Shown: positions 5,045 to 64,000 of the stretch, one piece after another
How the letters are laid out: the number at the start of each line of letters is the position of its first letter
How positions within the stretch are numbered: the first letter of the stretch is position 1
Source of the DNA: Acidobacteriota bacterium
GTDB taxonomy: Bacteria > Acidobacteriota > UBA6911
Direction of reading: 5' to 3'
NCBI GenBank assembly: GCA_016934555.1
Contig: JAFGSS010000146.1
Coordinates: forward strand, 20,061-84,060
Length of the DNA stretch: 64,000 nucleotides
Made by a program: the position numbers and the translations under genes
Notes under the pieces: model-generated
Databases searched by the model: none
What the model saw: only the letters and a program-made list of their open reading frames with translations
Told to the model about the DNA's origin: nothing

Positions 5045-5064
5045 GTCCGCTAAAAGTCGGGAGG

Positions 5065-5757
5065 TTACAGGATTCCCTGTTTGAAGGCGAAAGAGACGGC
5101 CTGCGCCTTGCTGTGCAGGTCGAGTTTCACCAGGATGTTCTGTATGTGATTTCTGGCCGTGTAATGGCTGATATCGAGCTTTCGGGCCAGCGCCTTGGTG
5201 GAAAGACCCTCGGCAAGCAGGGTCAGTACCTCGAATTCACGCGCCGACAGCGCCGCGAAGGCGGGCCGGCCTGCCTGCCTTGGAGGCTGGATGCCGCATC
5301 CTTCCGCCGGTCCGGCACAGGACGCGGCCGCGTTCGATCCGGAGGATTTCAGTTCCGCGAGAAAGCGGTCGAGGGCGAACTCCATCCTCCTGTCCCGGGT
5401 CACGTCGCGCAGGATGTGCGTGACCAGGGGGGACTCGGAACCGGTGCTCGACAGGAGGGTGACATTGATCCAGACCGGGCGGCCGGAGCTGTGGACGGCC
5501 TCGAGGTCGAAATTCCCCCGGGGCGTTCCTTCGACCCCGCTCCGGTGAACCGCGCAATCCTGGCCGCAGGGCCCCCCCCTGCCGGGCGCTTTCCCGGAAA
5601 TTACCTGGTAACAGCTCCGGTGGAGGGTGTCCGATTCGGGGATGCCCAGGATCTTTTCCGCCCCCTGGTTCCAGCGGACGACGCGCTTGTGGGCGTCGGT
5701 GATGAAGACCCCGTCGGCCGTGTTGCAGAGAATATCCAGATAGTCGCTCTGGCGCAT
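5065..5757 (-). CDS. PAS-domain / LuxR-type HTH transcriptional regulator
   Basis: Start was moved to ATG at 5757 (MRQSDYLDILCNTADGVFITDAHKRVVRWNQGAEKILG, PAS-like). The C-terminal LSAREFEVLTLLAEGLSTKALARKLDISHYTARNHIQNILVKLDL is a LuxR/GerE helix-turn-helix. The track's upstream 94 aa are low-complexity. Confidence 0.75.
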   Translation of the reverse strand: MRQSDYLDILCNTADGVFITDAHKRVVRWNQGAEKILGIPESDTLHRSCYQVISGKAPGRGGPCGQDCAVHRSGVEGTPRGNFDLEAVHSSGRPVWINVTLLSSTGSESPLVTHILRDVTRDRRMEFALDRFLAELKSSGSNAAASCAGPAEGCGIQPPRQAGRPAFAALSAREFEVLTLLAEGLSTKALARKLDISHYTARNHIQNILVKLDLHSKAQAVSFAFKQGIL

Positions 5758-9758: not shown

Positions 9759-10021
9759 GATCTTCCTCCCCCCGGCGCCCCTTCCGCAGGGGTGCGCCCG
9801 GCAGATTGTATAATTATAGACGGGATCCGCGGGGCGCGGGGTTCAATTTTTCCACCCCGGTCCCGACAGGGAGCCGGCGGAAGACGGGGATCCCCGGGGG
9901 GGGCCTGCGGGGGGCGTTGGGATACAGTGGTGGATAAAGGGCCCCGGGGCCTGATACAATCCCCCTGACGCTTTCAGGTCGCCGGGGATCCGATAACGGT
10001 ATCCATTTCCCGAGGTTACGC

Positions 10022-13864: not shown

Positions 13865-16525
13865 TCACAGCGTGCCCCGTTCCAGGAGGCCCCGGAGGTG
13901 GCTGGAGATCGCGTAGCGGACGCCGTCGGTTTCGAAGGTGACGGCCCCCAGGTCCGCCGTGACGAAGGTCCGGACGTTGTGGTCGCGCAACCGCCCCGAC
14001 ACCTCGGCGGAGGGATGGCCGAACGGGTTGCGGCTCCCCGCGGAGATGACGGCCCAGCGCGGCGCGGAGCTTTCCAGAAACGCCTCCGAGGTGGCCGACC
14101 GGCTGCCGTGGTGCGCGACCTTCAGAAGAGGGCTTTCGAGGCGGAAGCCGTGCGCCAGGAGTTCCTCCTCTCCGCGCTTTTCGAGGTCGCCTGTCAGCAG
14201 GGCCGAAAAGCGGCGGAAGGCGAAGCGGATCACGAGCGAGCGGTCGTTGGCCGACGTCGGCGCGCCCTCCCGGCCCGGGTGAAGGACCCGGATGCGGACC
14301 GGGCCCCGGTCGAGCACGGCCCCCCGGCCCACCCGGGTCACGGGGATCCCTTTTCTTTCCGCGGTTTCGAGGATCCTGGCCAGGATGCGCGCATCCTCCC
14401 GCGCGGGAGCGCAGCCGAATTCGCGGACGGCGAAGTTCGACAGGACCGCGGGGATCCCTCCGGCGTGATCCATGTCCGCGTGCGACAGGAGAACCCTCTC
14501 CGGCCGGAGCATCCACCGGTGCCAGAGAAAGCGGCTTACGACCGCTTCGCCGATGTCGAACCCCTCCCCGCTCTCCTCCTCCGCCGGGGGGAGGACGAGG
14601 CCCCCCGCATCCAGGAGCCAGAGGCCGCCGTCGGGAAAACGGATGACGATCGCATCCCCTTCGCCGACATCCAGGAAAGTGAATCCCAGGACCGGGGCGG
14701 GGTCCCGCCCGGCGCCCCGGCCGGCCAGGGCGGCCCGGGGCCGGAGCCGGTCGAGGGTGGACTGCACGAGGGAGGTCGAGGCCGTGGCCGGGACCAGGAG
14801 GGCGGCGGCCACGAGAGCCGCCGGGACCCAGCGTCGGCGCCACCGGAGGAAGGACCAGAGGAAAAGGAGGCCGATAGAGCCCCACACCCAGGCGGCCGGC
14901 GGGGTCGGGCATCGCTGCCAGGCGCCGGGGATCGCGGCCGCGCCGCGGGCGCAGGCAAGGAGGAGGGTGGCGCATTTTCCGGCGATCGGTACAAGGGCCG
15001 CCCCGGGCCCTCCGGGGGCCAGGGCGGCCCCGAGGCCGGCGGCCAGGGTCAGGGAGGAGAGCGGAACCATGACCACGTTGGCCAGCGGTCCGATCCAGCT
15101 GATGCGGTTGTAGCTGTGGGCCAGCAGGAGCCCGATCCACAGCTCGACCGCGAGCGAAAGGAGGACCAGGCTCCCCGCCGCCGCCACGGCGTCGGCCGCA
15201 CGACGGCAGGCCCATTGAAACGCCCGCGCGGCGCCGGGGGAAACCCGGTCGGCCATCGCCTCGGCGGTCAGTTCGAGCCCGAAGCGCAGGCGCCGGCCGA
15301 GGCGGTGCCATCGGCCCGGCCGGAGGAAGAGGCGGTCCGCCTCGCCCGCATGCCGCGCGGGCGCGCAGACGGGGTTCCAGCAGCCTTCGATGAGGGGGGA
15401 TGCGGTCATCACGATGGCCAGGACGGAAAGAAAAGAAAGCTGGAACCCGATTTCGAACAGCCAGCCCGGGTTGGCCGCAAGCAGGATGAGGGCCGCGGCG
15501 AAAAGGAGGTTGACCGAATCGGCGTGCCGGAAGAGCATGCGCCCGAGCAGGTAGAGCGCAAATACCCAGAAACAGCGGGTGATGCTCGCCTGGAAGCCGA
15601 CGATCACCGTATAGGCCAGGATGGCCATGCCCGCCGTCAGGTAGCGGAGGCGTTCCGGGAGCCGGGCGCGCCGGGCCAGGCAGAGGAGAACCCCCGCGAT
15701 CCAGGCGACGTGAAGGCCGGACACCACCAGGACGTGGAGCGTTCCGGAGTTTCTGAAGGCCTCGCTGACAGGAGCGGTCAGCCCCGAGTAGTCGCCGATG
15801 GTCAGGCTGGCCAGGATGGCGGCCTCTACCCTGTTTCCCCGGTCGGCGAGGGGGCGGAAGGCGTTTTGCACGCGCGTGCGCGCACGCACCGCGAGACCGG
15901 TCACGGGACCGGAGCAACCCCCCGGTTCGGTTTCCAGCAGTCGGGTGGATTTGGTTCTTCCGACGATCCAGACGCCGCGCCGGGCCAGCCGGGCGACCCG
16001 GTCCTCCGAGCCCGGGTTTTCGAAATTGCGGGGGCGGCGCCAGACGCCCCATCCCCTGACCCGGTCCCCCCGTGCGAGCAGAGGCGTTCTCCCGCCCTCG
16101 CCCTGCGCCCCGGGGAGGGCGACGCGCAGAATCCCCATGCCCCGGCACGCGGTCCATCCCTCCCCCCGGCGCCGGGCGAGCAGCCGGAGCGTGTGCACGC
16201 TTTCCCCTCCCCTGATCCGTCCGTCATCGGCGACGCAGGCGTCGAAGGCGGAGGGTTCGTCCAGAGGAAACTCCCCCCGGGCGAGGGCGTGCCGGAGATG
16301 GGCGCGCGGGACCCCGTCGCGACGCGCCGCGGCCGCCAGGAATCCTGCCGCCGCCACGGCCGCCAGCCCGAGCGCCAGGGCCCGGCCCGGCAGGTTGCGG
16401 TGGAGGGCCAGGCCTGAGGCGGCGGCCAGCAGAAAGCCCGCCGCGAGGATCCCGCCGAAGGCATATTCCCTGAAGGCCTCGGCCAGGAGAATCCCGAGGG
16501 AGAAGGAAAGGGCCACGGCCGCCAT
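13865..16525 (-). CDS. comEC: DNA internalization competence protein ComEC/Rec2 (with C-terminal metallo-beta-lactamase domain)
   Basis: A polytopic membrane region is followed by LLSHADMDHAGG (MBL motif) and LKVAHHGSRSATS. Start was moved to ATG at 16525 (MAAVALSFSLGILL). The track's upstream 175 aa are Arg/Pro-rich junk. Confidence 0.85.
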   Translation of the reverse strand: MAAVALSFSLGILLAEAFREYAFGGILAAGFLLAAASGLALHRNLPGRALALGLAAVAAAGFLAAAARRDGVPRAHLRHALARGEFPLDEPSAFDACVADDGRIRGGESVHTLRLLARRRGEGWTACRGMGILRVALPGAQGEGGRTPLLARGDRVRGWGVWRRPRNFENPGSEDRVARLARRGVWIVGRTKSTRLLETEPGGCSGPVTGLAVRARTRVQNAFRPLADRGNRVEAAILASLTIGDYSGLTAPVSEAFRNSGTLHVLVVSGLHVAWIAGVLLCLARRARLPERLRYLTAGMAILAYTVIVGFQASITRCFWVFALYLLGRMLFRHADSVNLLFAAALILLAANPGWLFEIGFQLSFLSVLAIVMTASPLIEGCWNPVCAPARHAGEADRLFLRPGRWHRLGRRLRFGLELTAEAMADRVSPGAARAFQWACRRAADAVAAAGSLVLLSLAVELWIGLLLAHSYNRISWIGPLANVVMVPLSSLTLAAGLGAALAPGGPGAALVPIAGKCATLLLACARGAAAIPGAWQRCPTPPAAWVWGSIGLLFLWSFLRWRRRWVPAALVAAALLVPATASTSLVQSTLDRLRPRAALAGRGAGRDPAPVLGFTFLDVGEGDAIVIRFPDGGLWLLDAGGLVLPPAEEESGEGFDIGEAVVSRFLWHRWMLRPERVLLSHADMDHAGGIPAVLSNFAVREFGCAPAREDARILARILETAERKGIPVTRVGRGAVLDRGPVRIRVLHPGREGAPTSANDRSLVIRFAFRRFSALLTGDLEKRGEEELLAHGFRLESPLLKVAHHGSRSATSEAFLESSAPRWAVISAGSRNPFGHPSAEVSGRLRDHNVRTFVTADLGAVTFETDGVRYAISSHLRGLLERGTL

Positions 16526-16605: not shown

Positions 16606-17775
16606 CTACACCCTCGCGAGGCGGACGACGGTTTCGAAGTGATAGCTCTGGGGAAACAGGTCGAGCCCCGCCACCGAATCGATCCGGTAGTGATCGGGCA
16701 CGAGGCGGGCCAGGTCCCGGCAGAGGGTCTGGGGATCGCAGGAGACGTACGTGATCGTGCCGGGGCGCCACCGGCGGAGCTGCTCCATGACCCTTTCCCC
16801 GGCGCCGGTGCGCGGAGGGTCGAGGACGACCAGGCCGAAATCGCGCGCCTCCGCCCCCTGCATCCAATCGGCAACATCGGCGCACACCGTCTGGAGATGA
16901 CCGAAGCCAGCCCCGGCGGCATTGGACTGCAGCAGCCGGCACGCGGACGGAGAACCTTCGACGGCGACCACTTTCCGGAAGGTGCGCGCCAGGGGAAGCG
17001 AAAAGACCCCGACCCCGGCATAGAGATCGAGCGCCGCGGCCGGATCGCAATCCCGGGCGGCGGCGTCCACCAGCACGGCCAGGTCCTCCACCAGGAAATC
17101 GTTGGCCTGAAAGAAGACGTCGGGTGTCAGCCGGTAGGTGAATCCGCCGACCTGGCGCCGCAGCGTCCGCCCCGGACCGACGGCCCAGGCGCCCTCCTGT
17201 TCGGAGCAGGCGATGTCGATCTCCCCGGGCTCCCGTTCGGCTCCGGGGCTCCGGCGGCGCACCCGCAGCGCCTTGAGGGCCTCGTTCAGCGAGGGCTGGA
17301 AGAGAGGGCAGTGATCGATGTCCAGGATCGTATGCGACCCTCCCCGGAAGAAGCCGACGGCGGCGCCGGCCCCGGTCCCGGCAAACCGCATCCGGGCCCG
17401 GGAGCGGTATCCGAACGGCTGCGGCGAGGGTGCCATGGAGACGGGCAGGCCGGCGGTTTCGGGAAATCTATGATGCAGGAGCTCCTCGAGGATCCCCCGT
17501 TTGGCTTCCACCTGCCGGGCATATTCGAGATGCTGCCAGTGGCATCCCCCGCAGGCGCCGAAATGGGGACAGGCGGGGTCTGTCCGCCCCGGCCCGGGAT
17601 CCAGGATCCGCACGGCGGAGGCGCGGACAAAGTTTTTCTTTTCCTCGACCGGCCGCACCAGGAGCGTGTCCCCCGGGGCCGAGAAGGGGACGAAGACCAC
17701 CTTCCCCTCGTGTCGGCCCAGGCCGGCACCTCCGTAGACCAGTCGTTCGATCCGGAGCGTGAACGTGTGCGGCAT
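16606..17775 (-). CDS. rlmD: 23S rRNA (uracil-C5)-methyltransferase RlmD/RumA family
   Basis: TRAM-like N-terminus (TFTLRIERLVYGGAGLGR), then a CPHFGACGGCHWQH Fe-S cluster motif, then a SAM-methyltransferase fold (LDLYAGVGVFSLPLA, VLDPPRTG). Confidence 0.85.
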   Translation of the reverse strand: MPHTFTLRIERLVYGGAGLGRHEGKVVFVPFSAPGDTLLVRPVEEKKNFVRASAVRILDPGPGRTDPACPHFGACGGCHWQHLEYARQVEAKRGILEELLHHRFPETAGLPVSMAPSPQPFGYRSRARMRFAGTGAGAAVGFFRGGSHTILDIDHCPLFQPSLNEALKALRVRRRSPGAEREPGEIDIACSEQEGAWAVGPGRTLRRQVGGFTYRLTPDVFFQANDFLVEDLAVLVDAAARDCDPAAALDLYAGVGVFSLPLARTFRKVVAVEGSPSACRLLQSNAAGAGFGHLQTVCADVADWMQGAEARDFGLVVLDPPRTGAGERVMEQLRRWRPGTITYVSCDPQTLCRDLARLVPDHYRIDSVAGLDLFPQSYHFETVVRLARV

Positions 17776-17825
17776 CTCTTCCCCGTCCATGAATGATGGT
17801 CTCCCGGCCCGCCGCCCGGTCCGGA

Positions 17826-18554
17826 TCAGAGCCGGAAAAGGCTGAGCTCCCCGATCCCGTACTTCCGCCGGATCCGGTCGTGCATGTAGTTTTCGCGGAT
17901 CCGTGCGAAGGTCTCCTTCGGCAGTCTCTTCTTGTACTCCTTGAGCTCTTTTCGGGCTTCAGTCTCCCATTCGGCAGCCTCTTCGGCCGGGACGCGGCCG
18001 CCGAGCTCCTCCATCAGCAGATCGTCGAGGATTCGAAGGTCGCGTTCGAGCGCTTCCAGGTCGATGCGTGCGCCCGCGCGGCGGGAGCACTCGATCTCCT
18101 CGAGTCGGGCCTGCACGCGGACCACGCCTTCGGGAGGGTCTCCGGGGTATAGTTTCGCCGAGAGGGCGTTTATTTCAGCCATTCTCGCCGCGAGGAAGGC
18201 GCCGATCTCTTCCCCCCCCGGGACGCCGCCCCCGGGATCTTCCGGATCCTCGCCCCCCCCGCGGGCGCTGTCCCCGGTGTCCTCCCCGACATGAGAGTCT
18301 GCGTAGTCGGCGTAGGCCTCCAGGACCGCGTCATGACAGTAGCAGAGGCTGCTGACCTTGGAATGGCCCTGCGGGCGCCGCGCGCTGAAGCCGTCCATGG
18401 CGATGTCGATGCCGCGCAGTGCGATATGGAGCGGAATACCGGCGTCGCGCCAGGCGGCGATCAGGTTCCAGTCCGTCGGGGAGATCAGCAGGTGCTTGCC
18501 CCGCCTCCGCACGAAATGTTCCTCGATTTCGGTGAAGTAATTGTAGTAGTTCAT
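17826..18554 (-). CDS. Hypothetical protein, DnaD-domain-like N-terminus, acidic/Gly-rich linker, coiled-coil C-terminus
   Basis: ATG at 18554 gives MNYYNYFTEIEEHFVRRRGKHLLISPTDWNLIAAWRDAGIPLHIALRGID. This follows the F..E..FGR.LSP.E...I..W pattern of DnaD-like domains. The remaining sequence is low complexity. Confidence 0.5.
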   Translation of the reverse strand: MNYYNYFTEIEEHFVRRRGKHLLISPTDWNLIAAWRDAGIPLHIALRGIDIAMDGFSARRPQGHSKVSSLCYCHDAVLEAYADYADSHVGEDTGDSARGGGEDPEDPGGGVPGGEEIGAFLAARMAEINALSAKLYPGDPPEGVVRVQARLEEIECSRRAGARIDLEALERDLRILDDLLMEELGGRVPAEEAAEWETEARKELKEYKKRLPKETFARIRENYMHDRIRRKYGIGELSLFRL

Positions 18555-18625
18555 CCTCTCCAACCGGAAAAGGGGATTGTGCCATAAAAAGGGGGAGAAG
18601 GGGAGCCGCGGCGGCCCGTGGGCTC

Positions 18626-19759
18626 TCAGGGGATCAGGCCGACCTGGAGGGGGGGGCGGGAAGGGGGGCTGGCCTCGACGGTAAAATCGATCCGCCCGAG
18701 CGTCTGGCCCGATTCGGTTTCGACCTCCACCCGCCATCGTCCGGGCGTGATCCCCTGTTTGCGGGTATAGCCCCGGAAACCCCGTTCCCGTCCTCCCCGG
18801 ATCTCGAACCGTATGCGGTCGGTCTGCACCCATTCCCCGCCGGCGGTAGTGCGGCTCCAGACATGGCTTATGGGGACGCGGAACTTCGGGGGCGCGAATA
18901 TGGCGGTATAGCAGTAGGCGCTTTCTCCCGGCGCCAGATAAAAGGGGTCGTCCCATTTCTTCCAGAACCGCCAGCGCGGACCGGGTACGTGCATCACTTC
19001 GTACCCGCCCGGGGTGCGCGCCACGTGGTGGTAGATCCCCGCCGACTTCAGCGCCAGCGGGACCGGGGGGATGAGGCTGGCGAGGTAGAGGAGGTTCACC
19101 GCGAGGAGCGTAAGCCCGATCCAGGGGAGGACGGGCCGCAGCGCGAGGCGCCGCGGCACCCCCGCACGCCCGAGCCCCAGGGAGAAGACCGCAAGGCTCA
19201 CCCCCAGGCTGAGGACCCCGGCCAGCGCGAAGATGGCGCCGTTGACGGCCGCCAGGATCACCGGCAGGAAGAAGGCGAAGAAGGAGAGGAGGCAGAAGGT
19301 GTAGAGAACGGCGAGGAGGCGGCCGTCCTCGAGCCGGTCATGCAGGAATTCGTTGCCGATCCAGAGGGCGACGAGGATCAGGAAGAAGATCTGGGTCCGG
19401 GTGAAGGAGGCGCTCTTGAAATAAAAGATGACGTAGCTCGAAAACAGGCCGCCGAACAGGAACTGCAGGACCCAGGGGAAGCAGGGGCGCAGTTTTGCCG
19501 CCGGCCCGGGGAGGGGGATCCCCGCCCGGCTCCTGAGGATGAGGACGATCAGGGCTCCCGCGACCGCCAGGTAGGAGAGCAGGAGCGCGTTGTCCAGGAG
19601 ATTGTCGACGCGCGTCAGGGTCAGCGAATCCCAGAGGAACCCGGCGCCGAACAGGGCGATGCCCGAATATTTTTCGTGGCGGCGGTACCAGAGAGCCAGC
19701 GCCCTTGCCGTCTCCGGCAGCGGGGGTCGCGCGTTCTGGGGGAGGGGATCGGGAGGCAT
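18626..19759 (-). CDS. Polytopic membrane protein with C-terminal soluble beta-rich domain (DUF2914-like)
   Basis: Eight or more hydrophobic helices precede a C-terminal ~120-aa domain (YHHVARTPGGYEVMHVPGPRWRFWKKWDDPFYLAPGESAYCYTAIF...). Confidence 0.6.
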   Translation of the reverse strand: MPPDPLPQNARPPLPETARALALWYRRHEKYSGIALFGAGFLWDSLTLTRVDNLLDNALLLSYLAVAGALIVLILRSRAGIPLPGPAAKLRPCFPWVLQFLFGGLFSSYVIFYFKSASFTRTQIFFLILVALWIGNEFLHDRLEDGRLLAVLYTFCLLSFFAFFLPVILAAVNGAIFALAGVLSLGVSLAVFSLGLGRAGVPRRLALRPVLPWIGLTLLAVNLLYLASLIPPVPLALKSAGIYHHVARTPGGYEVMHVPGPRWRFWKKWDDPFYLAPGESAYCYTAIFAPPKFRVPISHVWSRTTAGGEWVQTDRIRFEIRGGRERGFRGYTRKQGITPGRWRVEVETESGQTLGRIDFTVEASPPSRPPLQVGLIP

Positions 19760-19817
19760 GGTTGTCGGGGCGGGGAGCGCGGGCGGCCCGCCGGCGGGCC
19801 GCCCGTTCCGGCGGAGT

Positions 19818-21383
19818 TCAGTGTTTGAAATGCCGGATCCCGGTGAAGACCATGGCGATCCCCCTGCTGTCGGCGGCCTCGATGACCTCGGCGTCGCGCA
19901 CCGACCCGCCCGGCTGGATGACGGCCCTGACGCCGTATTCGGCGGCGGCCAGCAGCCCGTCGGGGAAGGGGAAGAAGGCGTCCGAGGCCATGGCGCAGCC
20001 TTCGAGCGGGAGCGTGGCCTTCATCGCCCCCCACTTCACCGCGTCCACACGGCTGGTCTGCCCGGCGCCGATTCCGAGCATCCGGCTCGGGCCGGAGAAG
20101 ACAATGGCATTGCTCTTGACATGCTTGACAACGCGCCAGCCGAACAGCAGCGCCTCCAGTTCCTCGCGCGAGGGGGCGCGCCTGGTGACCGTCTTGAGTT
20201 CATCGGGGCCGAGGAAATAGGTGTCCTTGTCCTCGATGAGGAAGCCGCCGCTGATCTGGCGGTGCTGCGGCCTGACCGGGGCGGCGCCCCTCACCCGCAG
20301 CAGCCGGAGGTTTTTCTTCTGCCGCAGGATGTCGAGCGCGTCGGGTGCGAAATCGGGGGCCAGCACGACCTCCACGAAGGTCCGGTTGATTTCCTCCGCC
20401 GTGTCCCGGTCCACCGGGCGGTTCAGCGCCACCACCGAGCCGAAGGCCGAGACCGGATCGCTGTCGCGTGCCAGGGCGTACGCCTCCGCGAGCGTGTCGG
20501 CCTGGGCCACGCCGCAGGGGTTGGTGTGCTTGATGACGGCGGCCGCGGGGCGGTCGAATTCCAGCACCAGGTTCCATGAGGCGTCCGAATCGAGCAGGTT
20601 GTTGTAGCTGAGCTCTTTTCCGTGCAGCACCTCGGCCCCGGCCACGCCCGTCGCCTGCTCCGCCGCCCGGCGGTAGAGGGCCGCGCGCTGGTGCGGGTTT
20701 TCGCCGTATCTCAGGTCGCGGACCTTGTCCAGAGCCAGCACCTCGGAGGCGGGGAGGGCGCCCTCCCGCTTTTCGGCCCCCTCTCCCGACCACGCCCTTT
20801 CAGCGAACCATGCGGCGATGGCACTGTCGTAGGAAGCGGTGGCCGCGAACGCCTTCTGCGCCAGCCGGAAACGGGTGCCGGCGCCGAGGGCGCCGTCATG
20901 GAGTTCCATTTCCCCGAGGACCCAGGCATAGTCGGCGGGGTCGGTAACGACGGCCACCCCCGCGTGGTTTTTGGCCGCCGATCGGATCATGCTGGGCCCG
21001 CCGATATCGATCTGCTCGATGACTTCGGGATAGGCGATCCCTTCCCGCGCCGCGGTTTCCCGGAACGGATAGAGGTTGACGACGACCATGTCGATCGGCA
21101 GGATCCCCTGCTGTTCCATCTGGGAACGGTGCGACGGCCTGTCCCTCAGGCCCAGCAGGCCGCCGTGAATCCTGGGGTGCAGTGTCTTGACCCGGCCGTC
21201 CATGATTTCGGGGAATCCGGTATAGTCGGACACGTCGACGACGGGGACCCCCCGCTCCCGGAGAAAGGCGGCGGTGCCCCCGGTCGAGAGCAGTTCGATC
21301 CCCATTTCCCGAAGGCGCCCGGACAGTTCGGCCAGGCCGCTCTTGTCGGAAACACTTATCAAAGCACGTTGTATGCGGATCAA
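19818..21383 (-). CDS. purH: Bifunctional AICAR formyltransferase / IMP cyclohydrolase PurH
   Basis: RALISVSDKSGLAELSGRL...GGTAAFLRERGVPV (MGS-like domain) plus the AICARFT domain. Start is TTG, preceded by a strong GAGGAGG Shine-Dalgarno. 521 aa. Confidence 0.95.
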   Translation of the reverse strand: MIRIQRALISVSDKSGLAELSGRLREMGIELLSTGGTAAFLRERGVPVVDVSDYTGFPEIMDGRVKTLHPRIHGGLLGLRDRPSHRSQMEQQGILPIDMVVVNLYPFRETAAREGIAYPEVIEQIDIGGPSMIRSAAKNHAGVAVVTDPADYAWVLGEMELHDGALGAGTRFRLAQKAFAATASYDSAIAAWFAERAWSGEGAEKREGALPASEVLALDKVRDLRYGENPHQRAALYRRAAEQATGVAGAEVLHGKELSYNNLLDSDASWNLVLEFDRPAAAVIKHTNPCGVAQADTLAEAYALARDSDPVSAFGSVVALNRPVDRDTAEEINRTFVEVVLAPDFAPDALDILRQKKNLRLLRVRGAAPVRPQHRQISGGFLIEDKDTYFLGPDELKTVTRRAPSREELEALLFGWRVVKHVKSNAIVFSGPSRMLGIGAGQTSRVDAVKWGAMKATLPLEGCAMASDAFFPFPDGLLAAAEYGVRAVIQPGGSVRDAEVIEAADSRGIAMVFTGIRHFKH

Positions 21384-22509: not shown

Positions 22510-22570
22510 CCCGTCCGCCCCCCGCAAACGCCGATTGACAGCCTTCCCCCGGCTGTGCTGAAATGCCCCA

Positions 22571-24007
22571 ATGAAAAACGAGCCTCCCCAGGAACTTCTG
22601 CGCCGGATCCCGGCCGTTGACCAACTGCTCCTGCGCCCGGCGATCGCCTCCTGGGTGGAGTCCACCGGGCACGAGTTCATCGTGGCCGAAATTCAGCGCC
22701 TGCTGGCCGAGGTCCGCGCCGCGATCCTGTCGGAGGATGCCGATGCCGGGACCACGCCCGAACAGCTGGAGGCCGCCCTCGGTGCAAGGCTGGGGCGGCG
22801 TCTGCGCCCGGGACTCGGTCCGGTGATCAACGCGTCCGGTGTCATCCTGCACACCAACCTGGGACGGGCGCCGCTGTCGGATGGAGCCCGTGAGACTTTA
22901 TCGGCACATTCGGCCGGTTACACCAACCTGGAATACGATCTTTCCGAAGGGAAGCGGTCCCAGAGGGATAAGCTGATCCAGCCTCTGTTGCGGGAAGTGC
23001 TGGGGTGTGAGGATGCCGCGGTCGTCAACAACAACGCCGCCGCCGTCTACCTGATCCTCGACACCCTGGCCCGCGGCCGGGAGGTCATCGTCAGCCGGGG
23101 GGAACTGGTGGAGATCGGCGGATCCTTCCGTATCCCGGAGATCATGGCCCGCAGCGGCGCGCTGCTGCGCGAGGTGGGGACCACCAACAAGACGCGGATC
23201 GGGGACTACGAATCGGCCCTCAACGAAAACACGGCCCTGCTGCTGAAGGTTCATCCCAGCAACTACCGGATGCACGGGTTCACGGAAAAGCCCGCCCTCG
23301 AGGCCCTGGTCGATCTCGCCCGGCGCCGCCGGGTCCCCCTGGTCGAGGATATCGGCAGCGGTTGCCTGGTCGACCTCAGGCCCTACGGCATCGCGGATGA
23401 GCCGACGGTCCAGGCGAGCCTGTCCTCCGGCGTCGATCTCATCTCCTTCAGCGGGGACAAGCTGCTGGGCGGCCCGCAGGCCGGGATCATCGCCGGCGCG
23501 CGGAGCCTGGTGGAGCCGATCCGCAAAAATCCCCTCATGCGGACCTACCGCGTGGACAAGCTCGTCTACGGCGCCCTGGAGGCCACCCTCGGGAGCTACC
23601 GGTTCGGCCGTGCGGCCGCGGAGATCCCCGTGGTGCGCATGATCGCCATGACCGTCGAGGAAACCCGGCGGCGCGCCCGCCGCTTCGCCCGCCGGCTGCG
23701 TCCCCGTCTTCCCGGGGGGGCGGCGGTCCATCTCGTCGAGGGGGAATCGGTGGTCGGGGGCGGATCCTGTCCCGAAAGCGCCCTCCCCTCGATCCTGGTC
23801 TCCCTGGAGTCGGAAGCGGTCCGCCCCGGCCTGATCGAGTCGCGGCTGCGTTCGCTCGATCCCCCCGTGATCATAAGGATCGAGGGGGACCGGGCGCTCG
23901 TCGATCTGCGCACCGTGCTCCCGGTCCAGGAGAAGGTCCTGGCCGAAAGCCTCCTCGAAGTGGTCTCCCCCGGTTTCGAGCCCGCTCCCGGACCGCAGGG
24001 GGGCTAA
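22571..24007 (+). CDS. selA: L-seryl-tRNA(Sec) selenium transferase SelA
   Basis: VINASGVILHTNLGRAPL, then the PLP-lysine region LISFSGDKLLGGPQAGIIAG, then RVDKLVYGALEATL. These are diagnostic SelA motifs. 478 aa. Confidence 0.9.
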   Translation: MKNEPPQELLRRIPAVDQLLLRPAIASWVESTGHEFIVAEIQRLLAEVRAAILSEDADAGTTPEQLEAALGARLGRRLRPGLGPVINASGVILHTNLGRAPLSDGARETLSAHSAGYTNLEYDLSEGKRSQRDKLIQPLLREVLGCEDAAVVNNNAAAVYLILDTLARGREVIVSRGELVEIGGSFRIPEIMARSGALLREVGTTNKTRIGDYESALNENTALLLKVHPSNYRMHGFTEKPALEALVDLARRRRVPLVEDIGSGCLVDLRPYGIADEPTVQASLSSGVDLISFSGDKLLGGPQAGIIAGARSLVEPIRKNPLMRTYRVDKLVYGALEATLGSYRFGRAAAEIPVVRMIAMTVEETRRRARRFARRLRPRLPGGAAVHLVEGESVVGGGSCPESALPSILVSLESEAVRPGLIESRLRSLDPPVIIRIEGDRALVDLRTVLPVQEKVLAESLLEVVSPGFEPAPGPQGG

Positions 24008-58876: not shown

Positions 58877-58912
58877 GGCCGGCTGCCGGCTCCTGTGGTA
58901 CACTCTCACCCT

Positions 58913-59224
58913 ATGAAAATCCGGATGACGAGCAACGGAATCGAGGCGCCCCTGACCCCCTTCATCGGCAAGTTCGTGGCCAACGTCTGCCACGCCATTA
59001 TCTCCGCGCTCAAAACGCCGCTGCCGGTGCGGACCTTCACGTACGAATTCGAGGGGGAGTCGGTCCGGATCGAGGTCAACCGGACGGATGTCCCGCTGAA
59101 ACAGATGAGCCAGGGGTTTTCGCGCGTCATCATCCTCGACACCGTGCGGGGGATGCTGCGCCACCTGAAAATGGACGACCCGGAGGGGGCGATCCGGATC
59201 GAGGTCGACCTGGAAGGGGAGTAG
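58913..59224 (+). CDS. Hypothetical small protein
   Basis: 103 aa from the first ATG (MKIRMTSNGIEAPLTPFIGKFVANVCHAIISALK...). GC3-rich codon usage is consistent with a real gene. No family recognised. It is wedged between the GT2 gene and queG with 18-23 nt gaps. Confidence 0.45.
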   Translation: MKIRMTSNGIEAPLTPFIGKFVANVCHAIISALKTPLPVRTFTYEFEGESVRIEVNRTDVPLKQMSQGFSRVIILDTVRGMLRHLKMDDPEGAIRIEVDLEGE

Positions 59225-59247
59225 CCGGCCGATCGGACGGGGCCCGT

Positions 59248-60363
59248 ATGTCTCTATCCCATGCTTTCGGTTTAACGGCCCGGATCCGGGCGGAGGCCCG
59301 GGCTCTCGGATTTTTCCGGGCCGGGATCGCGCGGGCGGGTGAAACCCCCCGCGGGCGTCATCTGCGCGAGTGGCTCGGGCGCGGGTTCCACGGCGACATG
59401 CGCTACCTCGAGCGCCGCCAGGGGGAGCGGCTCGATCCGCGCCTCGTCCTTCCCGGCGCGCGGAGCGTGATCGTGGCGGCGATGGAGTGTCCCGCACCCC
59501 CCTTGCCGGAGCGGGCGCCGCTCCGGGGCCGCATGGCCCGCTACGCCCCCGGAGACGATTACCACACGGTGGTCGGGGACCGCATCGCCCGCCTGCTCGA
59601 TTTCATCCAAAAGGAAGTCCCTTCCGCCCGGGGGAAGGGGTACGTGGACGCCGGACCGGTCATGGAAAAAGCCTGGGGGGCGCAATCGGGCCTGGGCTGG
59701 ATCGGGAAGCACTCACTGCTCGTCACCCGGGAGCGGGGGTCCTGGTGCAACCTCGGCGTCCTCCTCGTCGATCTCGAACTCGAAGCGGACCCCCCGGCCG
59801 AGGACGGCTGCGGCGACTGCGCCCGCTGCATCGGTGCCTGCCCGACCGGGGCCATCGTCGCACCCCGCGTGCTCGACGCCCGGCGCTGCATTTCCTATCT
59901 GACGATCGAACTGCGCGGCAGCATCCCGCGCGCCCTGAGGCCGCTTCTGGGCGGCCGGGTCTTCGGGTGCGACGCCTGCCAGGAAGTCTGCCCCTGGAGT
60001 TTTTCCGCCGGTCGGGCGGCCGGGCCGGAGGAGGACGAGGGTTTCGACCTCCCGGCCCTGGCCGCCCTGACGGCGGAGGGGTTCGCCGTCCGCTTCGGCT
60101 CGAGCCCCGTCCGGAGGATCGGGCGCGACCGACTGGTGCGCAACGCCGTCGTCGCCCTCGGCAATTCGGGCGACCCCGGCGCCGTAGTTCCCCTCGGGGA
60201 CTCCCTCCGCGACCGGAGCGCGCTCGTGAGGGCGCACGCCGCCTGGGCCCTCGGCCGGCTCCCCTGCGCGGCAGCGCGGCGGCTGCTGGAGACGGCCCGG
60301 GACCGAGAGAAGGACCCGGAGGTGCTCGGGGAGATCGGGGCGGCGCTGGCCGGACGGGAGTGA
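59248..60363 (+). CDS. queG: Epoxyqueuosine reductase QueG
   Basis: MSLSHAFGLTARIRAEARALGF...RMARYAPGDDYH is the QueG N-terminus. Two 4Fe-4S motifs follow (CGDCARCIGACPTGAI; CDACQEVCPW), then C-terminal HEAT-like repeats. Start was moved to ATG 59248. Confidence 0.9.
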   Translation: MSLSHAFGLTARIRAEARALGFFRAGIARAGETPRGRHLREWLGRGFHGDMRYLERRQGERLDPRLVLPGARSVIVAAMECPAPPLPERAPLRGRMARYAPGDDYHTVVGDRIARLLDFIQKEVPSARGKGYVDAGPVMEKAWGAQSGLGWIGKHSLLVTRERGSWCNLGVLLVDLELEADPPAEDGCGDCARCIGACPTGAIVAPRVLDARRCISYLTIELRGSIPRALRPLLGGRVFGCDACQEVCPWSFSAGRAAGPEEDEGFDLPALAALTAEGFAVRFGSSPVRRIGRDRLVRNAVVALGNSGDPGAVVPLGDSLRDRSALVRAHAAWALGRLPCAAARRLLETARDREKDPEVLGEIGAALAGRE

Positions 60364-60378: not shown

Positions 60379-60918
60379 TTGCCGATAGGGGAGCCGATGG
60401 GCGGCAGTGCGCCGCCGGGGGAGGTACGGGGGATGGGGGAATTCATCGATCCCGCCACGGGAATGAGGAAGCCGGAACGGCGGTCGGGGCGCGACCGGCG
60501 CGATGCCCCGTCGATGCGGGCGCTGCTGCGGGAGAAACCGCGCCGCAGAAGGAGCCGGGGGCGGCGCACCACCGACCGGGGGGCCTACGTCGACATCTAC
60601 GACTCCCGGACCTGGGGCATCGCCCTGTCCGTCTGCGCCCTTTCGCTCGCCGACGCCCTGCTCACCCGGATGCACCTCGTGCGCGGTTCGGCCGAGGAGT
60701 GGAACCCCCTGATGAAGGCCGTGATCAGCGAGGCGGGGATGCCCGCCTTCTTCGCCCTGAAGCTGGCCATGACCGTCATCCCGATGGCCCTGATCCTCGT
60801 CCACAAGGAATGGGTCCTGGGCCGTTATGCCGCGCGCCTCTGCCTCTGGGCCTACGTCCTCCTTTCCTGCTACCACCTCTACCTCCTCTTCGCGGCGTCC
60901 CCCGGCGGTTTCGCCTGA
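60379..60918 (+). CDS. Hypothetical membrane protein (Arg-rich cytoplasmic N-terminus plus 3 TM helices)
   Basis: 179 aa. The N-terminal 80 aa are highly basic (RRSGRDRRDAP...RRRRSRGRRTTDRG). Three hydrophobic helices follow (WGIALSVCALSLADALL..., AFFALKLAMTVIPMALILV, LCLWAYVLLSCYHLYLLF). Confidence 0.5.
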   Translation: MPIGEPMGGSAPPGEVRGMGEFIDPATGMRKPERRSGRDRRDAPSMRALLREKPRRRRSRGRRTTDRGAYVDIYDSRTWGIALSVCALSLADALLTRMHLVRGSAEEWNPLMKAVISEAGMPAFFALKLAMTVIPMALILVHKEWVLGRYAARLCLWAYVLLSCYHLYLLFAASPGGFA

Positions 60919-60984: not shown

Positions 60985-61845
60985 ATGAAAACGAAGATGC
61001 GCCGCAGCCTGCTCTATGTCCCCGGCGACAGCCGGAAGATGCTCGAGAAATCGGCATCCTCCGCCGCCGACCTGCTTTTGCTCAACCTCGAGGACGGGGT
61101 CGCCGCCGCCATCAAGGAGGAGGCCAGGGGTAACGTCGTCCGCGCCCTGGGCGACATCGATTTCGGCTCCCACGAGGTCGTGGTGCGGGTCAACCCCCCC
61201 GAAACCGGGACCGGCCGCCGGGACCTCGAGGCCGTCGTCGCCGCCCGGCCGCACGGCATCTGCCTGCCGAAGATCGAAAGCGCGCGGCAGGTCGAGAGCG
61301 CGGCCGCCGCCATCGCCGCGCTGGAGGCGCAGGCGGGCCTCGAGGCGGGGAGCGTCCGGATCCACGCCATGATCGAGTCGGCGCGGGGGGTGCTCGGCGC
61401 CCCTGAAATCGCGGCCGCCCCGCGCCTCGAGTCCCTGGTTTTCGGTTCGGCCGATTATGTCGCCGACGTGCGCTGCCAGCCGGGAGACGACCGCCGGGAG
61501 TTGAGGCTGGCGCTCGAGATGATCGTGCTGGCGGCCCGCGCCGCGGGCATCGACGCCATCGACGCCCCCTGCTTCGACGTCCGCAACCAGGACATCCTCA
61601 GGCGGGAGGCGGCCCACGCGCGCCGCCTCGGGTTCGACGGCAAGAGCGCGCTCCACCCCGAACAGGCGGCCATCATCAACCGCATCTTCGACGTGACGCC
61701 GGGGGAGATCGCCTGGGCCGAACGCACCCTGGCCGAACTGGATGCGGCGGAGCACCGGGGGAAGGCGCTGACGACGGTCGAGGGGCGGCTGCTCGACAAT
61801 CCCCACCGGCTGCTGGCCGAGCGGATCCTGGCCCGACGGCCCTGA
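60985..61845 (+). CDS. HpcH/HpaI aldolase / citrate lyase beta-subunit (CitE)-like protein
   Basis: RRSLLYVPGDSRKMLEKSASSAADLLLLNLEDGVA matches the CitE/malyl-CoA lyase N-terminus (RSxLFVPG...DxxxxDLED). 286 aa. Confidence 0.85.
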   Translation: MKTKMRRSLLYVPGDSRKMLEKSASSAADLLLLNLEDGVAAAIKEEARGNVVRALGDIDFGSHEVVVRVNPPETGTGRRDLEAVVAARPHGICLPKIESARQVESAAAAIAALEAQAGLEAGSVRIHAMIESARGVLGAPEIAAAPRLESLVFGSADYVADVRCQPGDDRRELRLALEMIVLAARAAGIDAIDAPCFDVRNQDILRREAAHARRLGFDGKSALHPEQAAIINRIFDVTPGEIAWAERTLAELDAAEHRGKALTTVEGRLLDNPHRLLAERILARRP

Positions 61846-61919
61846 CCGCCCGTGGTACACTGTCCCCGCGGGCCTCTGGCCGCGCGCGGTTTACCATTGA
61901 TCACAAGGAAAAGGGCTTC

Positions 61920-62720
61920 ATGAACCGATTCAAAGGGACCGGCAGTTACATCCTCAGCGACTCCCTCAAGGAGATCGTCAACGCCGCCATCGTGCTCGGG
62001 CGCCCCCTGCTCATCAAGGGGGAGCCCGGCACCGGCAAGACCGAACTGGCCCAGGTGATCGCCGAGGACCTCGGCCTCCGCCTGATCCGCTGGAACATCA
62101 AATCGACCACCAAGGCGAACGAGGGGCTTTACGTCTACGACACCGTGCAGCGGCTGAACGATTCCCGCTTCCACGACAAGGACGTTTCGGACATCCGTCA
62201 GTACATCCGCTTCGGCGGGCTGGGGGAGGCGCTGCGGTCCGAGGAACAGGTGGTGCTTCTGATCGACGAGATCGACAAGGCCGACCTGGAGTTCCCGAAC
62301 GACCTGCTGTACGAACTCGACCAGATGAGGTTCGACGTCGTCGAGACCGGGGACCACTTCCGCGCCCGGCACCGCCCCATCGTGATGATCACGAGCAACA
62401 GCGAGAAGGAGCTCCCCGACGCCTTCCTGCGCCGCTGCCTCTTTCACTACATCGAGTTTCCCGATCCGGAGATGATGGAGCGGATCGCCCGCGTCCACTA
62501 TCCCGACCTCGAGCGGAAACTCGTGGCCCAGGTCGTGGCCCGCTTCTACCAGGTGCGAGAGCGGCGCGACCTGAAAAAACGTCCCTCGACCAGCGAACTG
62601 CTCGACTGGATCCAGGCCATCGTCGCCGGCGGCATCGGCGAGCGGGAGCTGACCCGTCGCCTCCCGTTTCTGGGCGTGCTCCTGAAAACCGAGGAAGACC
62701 TCGCGAGCGTGACGCGGTGA
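61920..62720 (+). CDS. MoxR-like AAA+ ATPase (CoxD / CbbQ-NirQ-NorQ size class)
   Basis: Walker A LIKGEPGTGKTELAQ, Walker B VLLIDEIDKA, sensor IVMITSN. At 266 aa it is typical of CoxD/CbbQ-type chaperone ATPases. Confidence 0.85.
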   Translation: MNRFKGTGSYILSDSLKEIVNAAIVLGRPLLIKGEPGTGKTELAQVIAEDLGLRLIRWNIKSTTKANEGLYVYDTVQRLNDSRFHDKDVSDIRQYIRFGGLGEALRSEEQVVLLIDEIDKADLEFPNDLLYELDQMRFDVVETGDHFRARHRPIVMITSNSEKELPDAFLRRCLFHYIEFPDPEMMERIARVHYPDLERKLVAQVVARFYQVRERRDLKKRPSTSELLDWIQAIVAGGIGERELTRRLPFLGVLLKTEEDLASVTR

Positions 62721-62733
62721 CGGGAGACACGGA

Positions 62734-63903
62734 ATGTTCATCAACCTCTTCCGCGCCCTGAGGCGGCACGGCATCCCGGTCACCTTCAACGAGTGGATGC
62801 TCCTGCAGGAGGCGCTGGGGGCAAACCTGGCCGACAGCTCGCTCACCCGCTTCTACCACCTCGCCCGCGCGATCCTGGTCAAGACCGAGGGACATTTCGA
62901 CCGCTTCGACCAGGCCTTCCTCGAATGCTTCGGCCACATCGAATCGAGCGACGAGCTGATCGCGAGGATCGTGGAGCGGCTGGCCCAGCTGCCGCCGCTC
63001 GAGCTGACGGAGGAGGAAAAGCGGCTGGTGGAGGAGCTGGATCTCGAGGAAGTGCGCGGGCGTTTCCTCGACCGGCTGCGCAACCAGGACGACGAGGAGC
63101 ACGTGGGGGGGAACCAGGCCATCGGCGTGCGGGGGCGCTCCCCCTTCGGCGCCTGGGGGTACAACCCCGCCGGGGTCCGCATCGGCCAGGATGTCGGCCG
63201 CCACCGGCGGGCGGTCCAGATCGCGGAAAAGCGCAGCTTCCGCAACTACCGGGACGACGTGGCGCTCGACACCCGCACCATCAAGACCGTGCTCGGCTAC
63301 ATGCGCCAGGTCGTCCGGGAGGGGCCGAAGGAGAGCCTGGACGTGGAAGGCACCGTCCGGGCCACCTGCCGCAACGCCGGCGAACTCGAGTTCGTCTGGG
63401 AGCGCGCGCGGCGCAAGCGGATCAAGCTCATGCTCCTGATGGACGCGGGCGGGACCATGACGCCGCACGCGGAGCTGGTCAGCCGGCTCTTTTCGGCCGC
63501 CCGCGACCTGGTTAAAAATCTGAAGTTTTACTATTTCCACAACTGCGTGTACCAGGAGCTCTACACCGACATCGCGCAGATGACGCCGGTCGCCACGCGC
63601 AAGGTGCTGGAGCAGACCCCGCGCGACACCCGCGTCATCCTGGTAGGGGACGCCTACATGGCCCCGTCCGAGCTCCTGCACCCCAACGGGGCGATCGATT
63701 TCTGGTACCGCAACGACCGCCCCGGGATAGAATGGCTCCGGGACATCCGGAAAAGATTCCGGAAGGTCCTCTGGCTGAACCCGGAACCGCGCGAGTGGTG
63801 GTCGAGCGTCCCCACCACCCGCCTGATCGAAAGCCTGTTCCCCATGCACGAGCTGACGCTCGAGGGGATGAGGCGCGGGACGCGGGCCCTGATGAAGCAG
63901 TAG
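62734..63903 (+). CDS. VWA-domain protein, CoxE-like
   Basis: 389 aa. The C-terminal region has a von Willebrand A-like MIDAS context (LMLLMDAGGTM..., VILVGDAYMAP). The N-terminus FINLFRALRRHGIPVTFNEWMLLQEAL is typical of CoxE-like VWA partners of MoxR ATPases. It starts 13 nt after the AAA gene. Confidence 0.8.
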   Translation: MFINLFRALRRHGIPVTFNEWMLLQEALGANLADSSLTRFYHLARAILVKTEGHFDRFDQAFLECFGHIESSDELIARIVERLAQLPPLELTEEEKRLVEELDLEEVRGRFLDRLRNQDDEEHVGGNQAIGVRGRSPFGAWGYNPAGVRIGQDVGRHRRAVQIAEKRSFRNYRDDVALDTRTIKTVLGYMRQVVREGPKESLDVEGTVRATCRNAGELEFVWERARRKRIKLMLLMDAGGTMTPHAELVSRLFSAARDLVKNLKFYYFHNCVYQELYTDIAQMTPVATRKVLEQTPRDTRVILVGDAYMAPSELLHPNGAIDFWYRNDRPGIEWLRDIRKRFRKVLWLNPEPREWWSSVPTTRLIESLFPMHELTLEGMRRGTRALMKQ

Positions 63904-63921
63904 GAGACGAAAGGAGTCGCC

Positions 63922-64000
63922 ATGAAAAAGTATCGTTGTGAGGCATGCGGCTACATCTACGACCCCGTCGCGGGGGACCCCGAAAACGGGGTCGAGCCCG
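63922..64000 (+). CDS. Rubredoxin (partial; continues past window end)
   Basis: [26 protein letters not shown] shows the canonical rubredoxin CxxCG...YDP N-terminus. AAAGGAG Shine-Dalgarno lies 8 nt upstream. Confidence 0.8.

Follow-up and report, generated by a model that had tools for sequence, protein, structure and literature searches.

Which protein does a MoxR-type AAA+ ATPase serve, together with its partner of the VWA family, when no familiar client enzyme is encoded beside the two genes? This question is raised by a gene pair at the end of a 64,000-nucleotide stretch of DNA from an Acidobacteriota bacterium (assembly GCA_016934555.1, contig JAFGSS010000146.1, positions 20,061 to 84,060 of the forward strand; hereafter the window). 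An initial annotation of the sequence had described a CitE-like lyase gene, the ATPase gene, the VWA gene and a rubredoxin gene that runs off the window end as one tight co-directional block, with the client either past the window end or of a non-canonical type such as a rubredoxin-linked oxidoreductase. Comparative genomics does not support a functional unit in which a neighbouring enzyme is the client: no third gene is conserved beside the pair, and the linkages to the CitE-like gene and to the genes of rubredoxin and a flavodiiron protein (FDP) are both limited to particular lineages. We consider it likely that the pair is a stand-alone MoxR/VWA remodelling module of the PA2707 type with a client encoded elsewhere, and that the CitE-like and rubredoxin-FDP genes are lineage-specific neighbours rather than clients.

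The evidence comes mainly from the genes that travel with the pair. One genome per GTDB species was scanned with an alignment of the VWA protein, which yielded at least 595 confirmed relatives among 600 stretches, and the best 80 loci were kept. Neighbours in these 80 loci were analysed by tblastn with the window proteins and by all-against-all clustering of open reading frames (ORFs) of at least 70 amino acids. The loci span about ten phyla, covering Acidobacteria, Leptospira, Spirochaetia, Thermodesulfobacteriota, Planctomycetota, Bacillota, Bacteroidota (Saprospiraceae), Dadabacteria and Alpha-, Beta- and Gammaproteobacteria, and the proteobacterial ones include Pseudomonas, Halomonas, Marinobacter, Caulobacter, roseobacters and a Pelagibacteraceae single-cell genome. 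An orthologue of the ATPase gene lies 5′ of the VWA gene in 64 of the 80 loci (53-66% identity, tblastn), while the identity of the VWA proteins across phyla amounts to 37-55%. The CitE-like lyase, FDP, QueG and DUF5658 were recovered in only one locus, an acidobacterial metagenome-assembled genome (MAG) with 90% VWA identity (L012); rubredoxin was found there and, as a lone gene about 5.5 kb away, in one other locus. De novo clustering revealed no further real neighbour family in more than 10 of the 80 loci. The other large clusters were shadow ORFs over the AAA and VWA genes, and the small real ones were limited to related loci (DksA, DUF2927, M48 peptidase, GNAT, RNase D and cysK). In annotated plasmid and chromid records, the Acinetobacter pair is located between YcgL and trpB, and the Paracoccus VWA gene between Ppx and an M48 peptidase. 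The conserved unit is the AAA-VWA pair. In none of the lineages does a third gene stay with the pair in cis, so its client is most likely a conserved protein with its gene elsewhere in the genome, on which the pair probably acts in trans.

In the window, the pair belongs to a run of genes on one strand, given here with two upstream genes as context:

59224-60363, + strand: QueG, epoxyqueuosine reductase (Pfam QueG_DUF1730, Fer4_16 and HEAT_2); context only
60379-60918, + strand: DUF5658 membrane protein (Pfam DUF5658, E 8e-14); context only
60985-61845, + strand: CitE-like acyl-CoA lyase of the HpcH/HpaI family, 286 aa (Pfam HpcH_HpaI, E 5e-57)
61920-62720, + strand: MoxR-type AAA+ ATPase, 266 aa (Pfam AAA, E 4e-12; AAA_5, E 2e-9)
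62734-63903, + strand: CoxE-like VWA protein, 389 aa (Pfam VWA_CoxE, E 7e-11, partial)
63922-64000, + strand: first 26 codons of a rubredoxin gene that runs off the window end (ATG at 63922, rubredoxin N-terminus)

The ORF list and Pfam confirmed the last four as co-directional genes, separated by 74 nt (CitE-AAA), 13 nt (AAA-VWA) and 18 nt (VWA-rubredoxin). The start codon of the rubredoxin gene is preceded by a GGAG resembling a ribosome-binding site. A promoter/terminator scan found nothing resembling a terminator on the + strand from 58.8 to 64 kb and gave no other informative signal. As had been remarked from the sequence, carbon monoxide dehydrogenase, Rubisco and nitric oxide reductase are missing upstream; these enzymes, like methanol dehydrogenase, were also not found among the annotated window ORFs, which are a subset of all ORFs.

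To read beyond position 64000, we used the VWA protein in an exact-protein look-up, which returned a single 2.2-kb Logan contig (L001). Since its overlap with the last 1599 nt of the window contains 0 mismatches, L001 effectively represents the same genome. Downstream of the VWA gene it encodes a complete 53-aa rubredoxin (Pfam E 2e-24) with two CxxC pairs (CEAC...CPDC) and, after a gap of 16 nt, an FDP of which 168 aa can be read. This N-terminal part consists of an ODP/Lactamase_B domain with the diiron motif HxExDH (HTEMDH at residue 76). In the close relatives L002-L007, whose VWA proteins are 95% and 90% identical to that of the window, the FDP is complete (392 aa, Lactamase_B/ODP plus Flavodoxin_1) and is followed by convergent genes. 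The downstream protein is thus predicted to be a class-A flavodiiron protein, a rubredoxin-linked oxidoreductase, and the co-directional run in this organism reads QueG, DUF5658, CitE-like lyase, AAA, VWA, rubredoxin, FDP. These contigs settle two earlier expectations about the sequence past the window end. A canonical client (coxSML, norCB or cbbLS) does not follow directly, as L001 and L002-L007 continue with rubredoxin and FDP; a rubredoxin-linked oxidoreductase had been proposed as a non-canonical client, and it is indeed encoded just past 64000, but comparative genomics speaks against its role as client. With gaps of 18 and 16 nt and no sign of a terminator, rubredoxin and FDP are probably co-transcribed with AAA-VWA by read-through in this organism, and the pair may be co-expressed with genes of O2/NO detoxification.

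Further downstream, about 5.8 kb past the VWA gene, L005-L007 (90% VWA identity) encode a molybdenum hydroxylase with fused 2Fe-2S (Fer2), Ald_Xan_dh_C and MoCoBD domains (16978-21170), followed by a cysteine desulfurase and NifU. At the position of this molybdenum enzyme, L002-L004 carry toxin-antitoxin genes, and L004 additionally an integrase gene.

The acidobacterial relatives allow the history of the flanking genes to be traced. Rubredoxin and FDP follow the VWA gene only at a VWA identity of about 90% or more (L002-L007, L012, L096, L097 and L099). Among metagenomic loci with room after a complete VWA gene, rubredoxin was present in three of twelve, all three with at least 90% VWA identity. 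At 75-80% VWA identity (L092-L094), the order QueG - (GGDEF) - DUF5658 - CitE - AAA - VWA is kept, but unrelated genes on the opposite strand take the place of rubredoxin-FDP in all three loci. Since all loci with VWA, rubredoxin and FDP in a row are close relatives, they represent one evolutionary event, and the juxtaposition is a single recent one.

DUF5658 is kept 5′ of CitE in L002-L007 and L092-L094, and the position of QueG is likewise kept in the acidobacterial relatives. When metagenome contigs were scanned with a CitE alignment and then analysed by tblastn (counting orthologues of 55% identity or more that are followed by 1 kb or more of sequence), an AAA gene was found downstream in 22 of the 38 CitE orthologues and was missing in the remaining 16. 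The gap between CitE and AAA varies from 52 to 301 nt, compared with the 13 nt between AAA and VWA in the window. Most of the 16 loci without AAA also lack the upstream DUF5658 and QueG genes and are therefore differently placed in the genome. Gene order inherited within one acidobacterial lineage accounts for the CitE linkage, which is not obligatory even there; the CitE-like lyase is probably not part of the AAA-VWA module. As to the enzyme itself, it scores 219 bits against the citE model TIGR01588 (cutoff 443 bits), neither citD nor citF occurs in the block, judged from the window ORFs and the close relatives, and its best solved relatives are human CLYBL and malyl-CoA lyases. It is best described, on these sequence criteria, as a CitE-like/CLYBL/malyl-CoA-lyase-like enzyme of the HpcH family and not as a CitE equivalog.

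The spacing within the pair itself also varies among the loci. In many Alphaproteobacteria, AAA and VWA are 1-4 kb apart with unrelated genes in between (DUF2927, DksA), so that the pair is linked yet not always a tight operon. The megaplasmid of Ralstonia syzygii (L011, 5479-8176) has a GNAT gene inserted between AAA and VWA or immediately 5′ of VWA, and a similar GNAT family (ORF cluster 17, 7 loci, representative Rhizobiaceae L047, 7479-7931) is found at the same position. A 4.2-kb contig in a Promethearchaeum/Asgard MAG (L080) carries an AAA-VWA pair whose proteins are 59% and 39% identical to those of the window; its presence may be explained by contamination during binning or by horizontal acquisition in an Asgard archaeon.

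The ATPase contains Walker A (GEPGTGKT) and Walker B (LLIDEIDKAD) motifs, and in an alignment of 60 sequences 83 of its 266 residues are invariant, including GEPGTGKT, IDExDKAD, ITSN and FLRRC. With Walker A and B, sensor-1 and the arginine motifs all intact, it is predicted to be a catalytically competent AAA+ protein of the MoxR type. The closest characterised relative is CoxD from the cox cluster of Afipia carboxidovorans (pHCG3B), with 36% identity over 252 residues (E 8e-42). However, AAA identities in plasmid and chromid records are bimodal (tblastn): ATPases next to VWA orthologues reach 55.5-57.8%, whereas all other MoxR proteins including CoxD stay at or below 45%. The NCBIfam model MadB_ATPase (NF047784) scores the window ATPase with 125 bits and CoxD with 282 bits (cutoff 475 bits), and TIGR02640 for GvpN gives 18 bits against a cutoff of 266.8 bits. 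A Pfam search yielded no match to CbbQ_C, AAA_3 (PF07726) or RavA domains at E<=0.01. The best matches to solved structures are AAA modules of Midasin/Rea1 (E 3e-17 to 8e-16), and chains of CbbQ, NorQ and RavA are absent from the PDB sequence matches at E<=1e-3. Judged by these comparisons, the ATPase clearly falls into an orthologous group distinct from CoxD.

The VWA protein starts with a helical N-terminal domain and ends with its VWA domain, and a conserved Gly-rich segment (residues 123-152) lies between the two. A complete DxSxS signature of the adhesion site dependent on metal ions (MIDAS), which the initial annotation had proposed to look for, is not present: the motif reads D237-A-G239-G240-T241-M, that is DAGGT. 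DxGG[S/T] was found in 73 of 73 orthologues and DxGG[S/T]M in 72, which means that the first serine is invariantly replaced by glycine. T288 is kept in 67 of the 73 orthologues and D306 in all of them. Two further motifs are invariant in the family and absent from CoxE, namely the Gly-rich H123-x-GGN-x-x-x-G-x-x-G-x-SP-x-G...G147-x-R149-x-G151 and Y-F-H269-N-C271 (residues 267-271). The histidine, cysteine and aspartate residues near the pseudo-MIDAS might form a metal or cofactor site. In a broader but improbable reading, the pseudo-MIDAS DxGG[S/T], the His123/Gly-rich loop and YFH269-N-C271 could together be the signature of a VWA adaptor with a metal or cofactor of its own.

Comparison of the VWA protein with CoxE gave a similar picture of relatedness at a distance. 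An hhalign comparison with CoxE reached 97.4% probability (E 1e-11) and aligned residues 3-353 with CoxE 22-358, while pairwise identity is 21% and confined to the C-terminal half. The VWA_CoxE model scores 42 bits for the window protein (profile positions 14-100 of 222) and 288 bits for CoxE (2-222). In the plasmid and chromid records, VWA orthologues have 36.5-41.8% identity compared with at most 26.5% for other proteins. For structure prediction by AlphaFold2 (AF2), we used a mixed alignment of acidobacterial and proteobacterial sequences, as a shallow multiple sequence alignment of 75-100% identity resulted in a predicted local distance difference test (pLDDT) of 51. In the resulting model the VWA domain (230-389) has a pLDDT of 73-91 and the N-terminal helical domain (1-66) moderate values. 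Foldseek searches against the PDB gave weak matches to the CMG2 VWA domain (E 4.5e-4), to NorD in the NorQD complex 9qhe (E 4e-3) and to integrin beta-I domains, which are consistent with a VWA fold and no more. Sequence and profile searches of the PDB with the VWA protein or the family profile returned nothing meaningful.

These results also define how far the earlier naming can be kept. The assignment of the two proteins to the general MoxR/VWA type of CoxDE, CbbQO and NorQD was borne out by Pfam, by the motifs and by the pairing in 64 of 80 loci. The label 'CoxD/CoxE-like' holds with respect to homology (36% and 21% identity) but not with respect to membership in the CoxD/CoxE, CbbQ/NorQ/GvpN (CGN) or RavA groups, and the pair is now assigned to the PA2707 type. 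The family is very large, with more than 7900 clusters (90% identity) matching at E<=1e-20, and its conservation points to strong purifying selection on the pair that is independent of genomic context. In the Pseudomonas loci L056, L074, L078 and L081, the AAA and VWA proteins are 54-55% and 38-39% identical to those of the window, and the order in L078 is PALP/cysK - DUF748 - AAA - VWA. In Pseudomonas aeruginosa, PA2709 is cysK, PA2708 a DUF748 protein and PA2707 a MoxR family ATPase (PMC12800425, PMC9736018), and PA2707 lends its name to one of seven to nine recognised MoxR subfamilies (PMC3893208, PMC11432383). Because the orthologous gene order in Pseudomonas matches PA2709-PA2708-PA2707, we assign the pair to the PA2707 subfamily. 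Functional work on this subfamily was not found in the literature searched; PA2706 and PA2707 occur there in gene lists only, PA2706 in those of a transposon screen (unstable colony morphotype, poorer survival in the airways of mice) and of a microarray.

How such a module might work can be outlined by analogy. For NorQ/NorD, a NorQ hexamer with a NorD VWA 'finger' and contact between MIDAS and client has been proposed as a general scheme for MoxR/VWA couples, and NorQD acts in non-heme iron insertion (PMC9976466). Transferred to the pair studied here, the 266-aa AAA+ protein would form a hexameric ring on which one VWA protein docks and plugs the pore. The client would be held by the MIDAS face of the VWA domain together with the N-terminal domain, and ATP hydrolysis would remodel it, resulting in cofactor insertion, repair or complex assembly. 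Because the first MIDAS serine is a glycine, the metal-dependent client binding of NorD and integrins may not apply, and contact with the client may differ from the canonical metal-bridged mode.

Several points weigh against the interpretation as a stand-alone PA2707-type module. The subfamily label derives from conserved gene order and not from a direct alignment with PAO1 PA2707, and the remodelling function is argued from analogy only. The MIDAS of the proposed adaptor lacks its first serine in 73 of 73 sequences. The AF2 model is of medium quality (mean pLDDT 62), with values below 50 for residues 117-227, which include the Gly-rich motif. Finally, co-expression with FDP appears likely in this organism given the tight gaps and the lack of a terminator, and a lineage-specific functional link is possible.

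The last point leads to the first of the competing explanations, in which the acidobacterial pair was co-opted to mature or repair the FDP diiron site or rubredoxin at the expense of ATP, comparable to NorQ/NorD. It is in line with the shared strand, the 18- and 16-nt gaps, the GGAG before the rubredoxin gene and the uninterrupted run without a terminator-like site, with the HxExDH diiron motif of FDP and the precedent of NorQD in non-heme iron insertion (PMC9976466), and the arrangement recurs in several independent metagenomes (L002-L007, L012, L096, L097, L099). Nevertheless, we regard it as improbable. All loci with this arrangement are close relatives (>=89-90% identity), and rubredoxin-FDP does not follow VWA in any of the three acidobacterial relatives of 75-80% identity, in 9 of 12 metagenomic loci and in 79 of the 80 loci family-wide. 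Conservation of the pair is just as high in aerobes and in SAR11, where its neighbours do not include FDP. Moreover, FDPs are routinely produced with loaded diiron sites in Escherichia coli, and RavA and YehL are, to our knowledge, the sole MoxR proteins of this host; both points count against FDP or rubredoxin as the client. The more specific proposal that the acidobacterial pair is wired into the rubredoxin-FDP operon and uses ATP to load or repair the non-heme diiron centre of FDP as an insertase or repair factor has, in our view, a slim chance of being correct. If true, it would describe a cytoplasmic counterpart of NorQ/NorD, which inserts FeB into NO reductase, and a MoxR subfamily whose conservation extends from SAR11 to Pseudomonas would gain its first client. 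Little credence can also be given to the CitE-like lyase as partner or client, with the pair as an 'activase' that frees the lyase from an inhibited or mis-metallated state, in the way that CbbQO acts on Rubisco. The order CitE-AAA-VWA is kept down to 75% VWA and about 60% CitE identity (L092-L094 and 22 metagenomic loci), but 16 of the 38 CitE orthologues of the same identity band have no AAA gene downstream, and 79 of the 80 loci have no CitE homologue. The gap of 52-301 nt to AAA also differs from the approximately 13-30 nt between AAA and VWA, and the co-conservation of QueG and DUF5658 is what inherited gene order predicts, rather than a specific pairing.

A genuine CoxD/CoxE system for a molybdenum hydroxylase of the CODH/xanthine-dehydrogenase family encoded further downstream would fit CoxD as the closest characterised relative of the ATPase, the full CoxE architecture of the VWA protein (hhalign) and the Fer2/Ald_Xan_dh_C/MoCoBD protein in L005-L007. 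The scores do not agree with it, with 42 vs 288 bits for VWA_CoxE, 125 vs 282 bits for the CoxD-like model and DAGGTM instead of DASGSM, and neither XdhC/CoxF nor coxMSL was found beside the pair in any of the 80 loci. In addition, the molybdenum enzyme is absent within 10 kb in L002-L004 (95% identity), and in L005-L007 genes on the opposite strand intervene. We consider this interpretation very improbable; it was rejected because the enzyme is missing in the relatives of 95% identity and in all other loci. The least probable proposal, which we consider hardly credible, sees in the pair a MoxR-VWA system for conflict or defence against phages. Ternary conflict systems with MoxR and vWA are known (PMC7159879), and the ATPase gives weak partial matches to the bpMoxR (Pfam E 3e-4) and IetA/TRIP13 models. 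However, PADLOC yielded no match for the VWA protein and for the ATPase only short matches at the P-loop level (E>=1e-7). The pair is single, highly conserved, vertically distributed, present in the streamlined SAR11 and flanked by housekeeping genes, unlike a fast-evolving defence island. After the PADLOC scan, a defence system was rejected.

We therefore return to the stand-alone module of PA2707 type. The locus itself represents one ordinary case of a two-gene module that is very common, rather than a new, cryptic maturase system whose client is hidden nearby, and the client cannot be read from the genes beside it. The real problem is the substrate of the family as a whole: about a third of the residues of ATPase and adaptor are invariant across the sampled phyla, and the pair is present even in the streamlined SAR11 genomes. 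Since no client is found in cis across 80 diverse loci, proteomic or phylogenetic-profile approaches are needed to find it. The invariantly degenerate MIDAS and the family-specific motifs rich in His, Cys and Gly offer leads on the function of the family.

Apart from this block, the annotated genes of the window are of a housekeeping kind. The genes upstream of the CitE-like lyase encode DUF5658, QueG, a glycosyltransferase, TsaD, MtnA and a BtuF/FecCD transporter, and ten other large ORFs were annotated as CofD, Tex, Pat-like ACS/GNAT, DHODH-like, RNA methyltransferase, PurH, SelA, RNase R, SpoIID and radical-SAM DUF512. Directly 5′ of QueG lies a 109-aa ORF without a Pfam family (58895-59224, + strand), and a gene of 99-103 aa, likewise without a Pfam match, occupies this position in acidobacterial relatives (L002, 6164-6463; L005, 6197-6496; L092, 828-1139). 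The CofD-domain protein (2795-5236, - strand) is unusually long with about 813 aa. A 958-aa fusion of an ADP-forming acyl-CoA synthetase with GNAT (9938-12814, + strand) resembles a Pat-like protein acetyltransferase. SelA is encoded at 22562-24007 (+ strand), indicating that the acidobacterium uses selenocysteine. The region 13865-16500 (- strand), with a GC content of 0.72 and a strong positive AT skew, encodes a ComEC/Rec2-like membrane protein with a metallo-beta-lactamase domain, and the long ORFs on the opposite strand of this region are shadow ORFs.

Compared with known systems, the pair most closely resembles the PA2707/PA2706 type. It shares the AAA (53-66%) and VWA (37-55%) identities, the protein sizes of about 270-285 and about 390 aa and the order of AAA followed by VWA. 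The acidobacterial MIDAS reads DAGGTM compared with DVGGSM; the proteins otherwise differ in nothing substantive, and the CitE-like and rubredoxin-FDP flanks belong to a single acidobacterial lineage. CoxD/CoxE of Afipia (Oligotropha) carboxidovorans, which matures the Mo-Cu centre of CO dehydrogenase, has in common the full-length homology of the VWA protein, similar sizes and a tight AAA-VWA pair. CoxE, on the other hand, has the canonical MIDAS DASGSM instead of the DxGG[S/T]M of the window family and lacks both HxGGNxxGxxGxSPxG and YFHNC. coxMSL, coxF/XdhC and coxG were not detected beside the pair among the annotated window ORFs and within +/-10 kb in close relatives, and coxMSL and XdhC/CoxF not in the 80 loci. 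These features argue for a pair that is sister to CoxD/CoxE and stands outside the CoxD/CoxE (APE2220) subfamily. The nearest curated models to both the window pair and CoxD/CoxE are NF047784 (MadB_ATPase) and NF047783 (VWA_dom_MadC). The names MadB/MadC could not be traced to any paper in the literature searched, and 'Mad' appears to be a third, separately named CoxDE-like MoxR/VWA system.

With NorQ/NorD and CbbQ/CbbO of the CGN group, the pair would share, by analogy, a small MoxR AAA+ ring with one VWA adaptor and the ATP-driven remodelling of a metalloenzyme (PMC9976466). Its VWA partner has 389 aa compared with about 600-750 aa in NorD and CbbO, client genes are not adjacent and CbbQ_C is missing, which argues against membership in the CGN group. 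DUF58/Bat genes were not found near the pair in close relatives, and neither MRP nor RavA fits, the ATPase having 266 aa vs about 500 aa in RavA. Midasin/Rea1 also combines a motor of the AAA_5 type with a MIDAS/VWA element, but as one chain of about 4,700-4,900 residues in which six AAA modules are fused and which acts in ribosome biogenesis, whereas here one AAA protein and a separate VWA protein are encoded. The 53-aa rubredoxin and the class-A FDP correspond to the rd-roo cassettes of anaerobes, the standard pair for O2/NO detoxification; they differ in being appended 18 nt after a MoxR/VWA pair, a juxtaposition seen in close relatives of the window only. Taken together, the AAA-VWA pair is a new copy of a known, widespread MoxR/VWA kind without a characterised function, and its flanks are a minor, lineage-specific variant.

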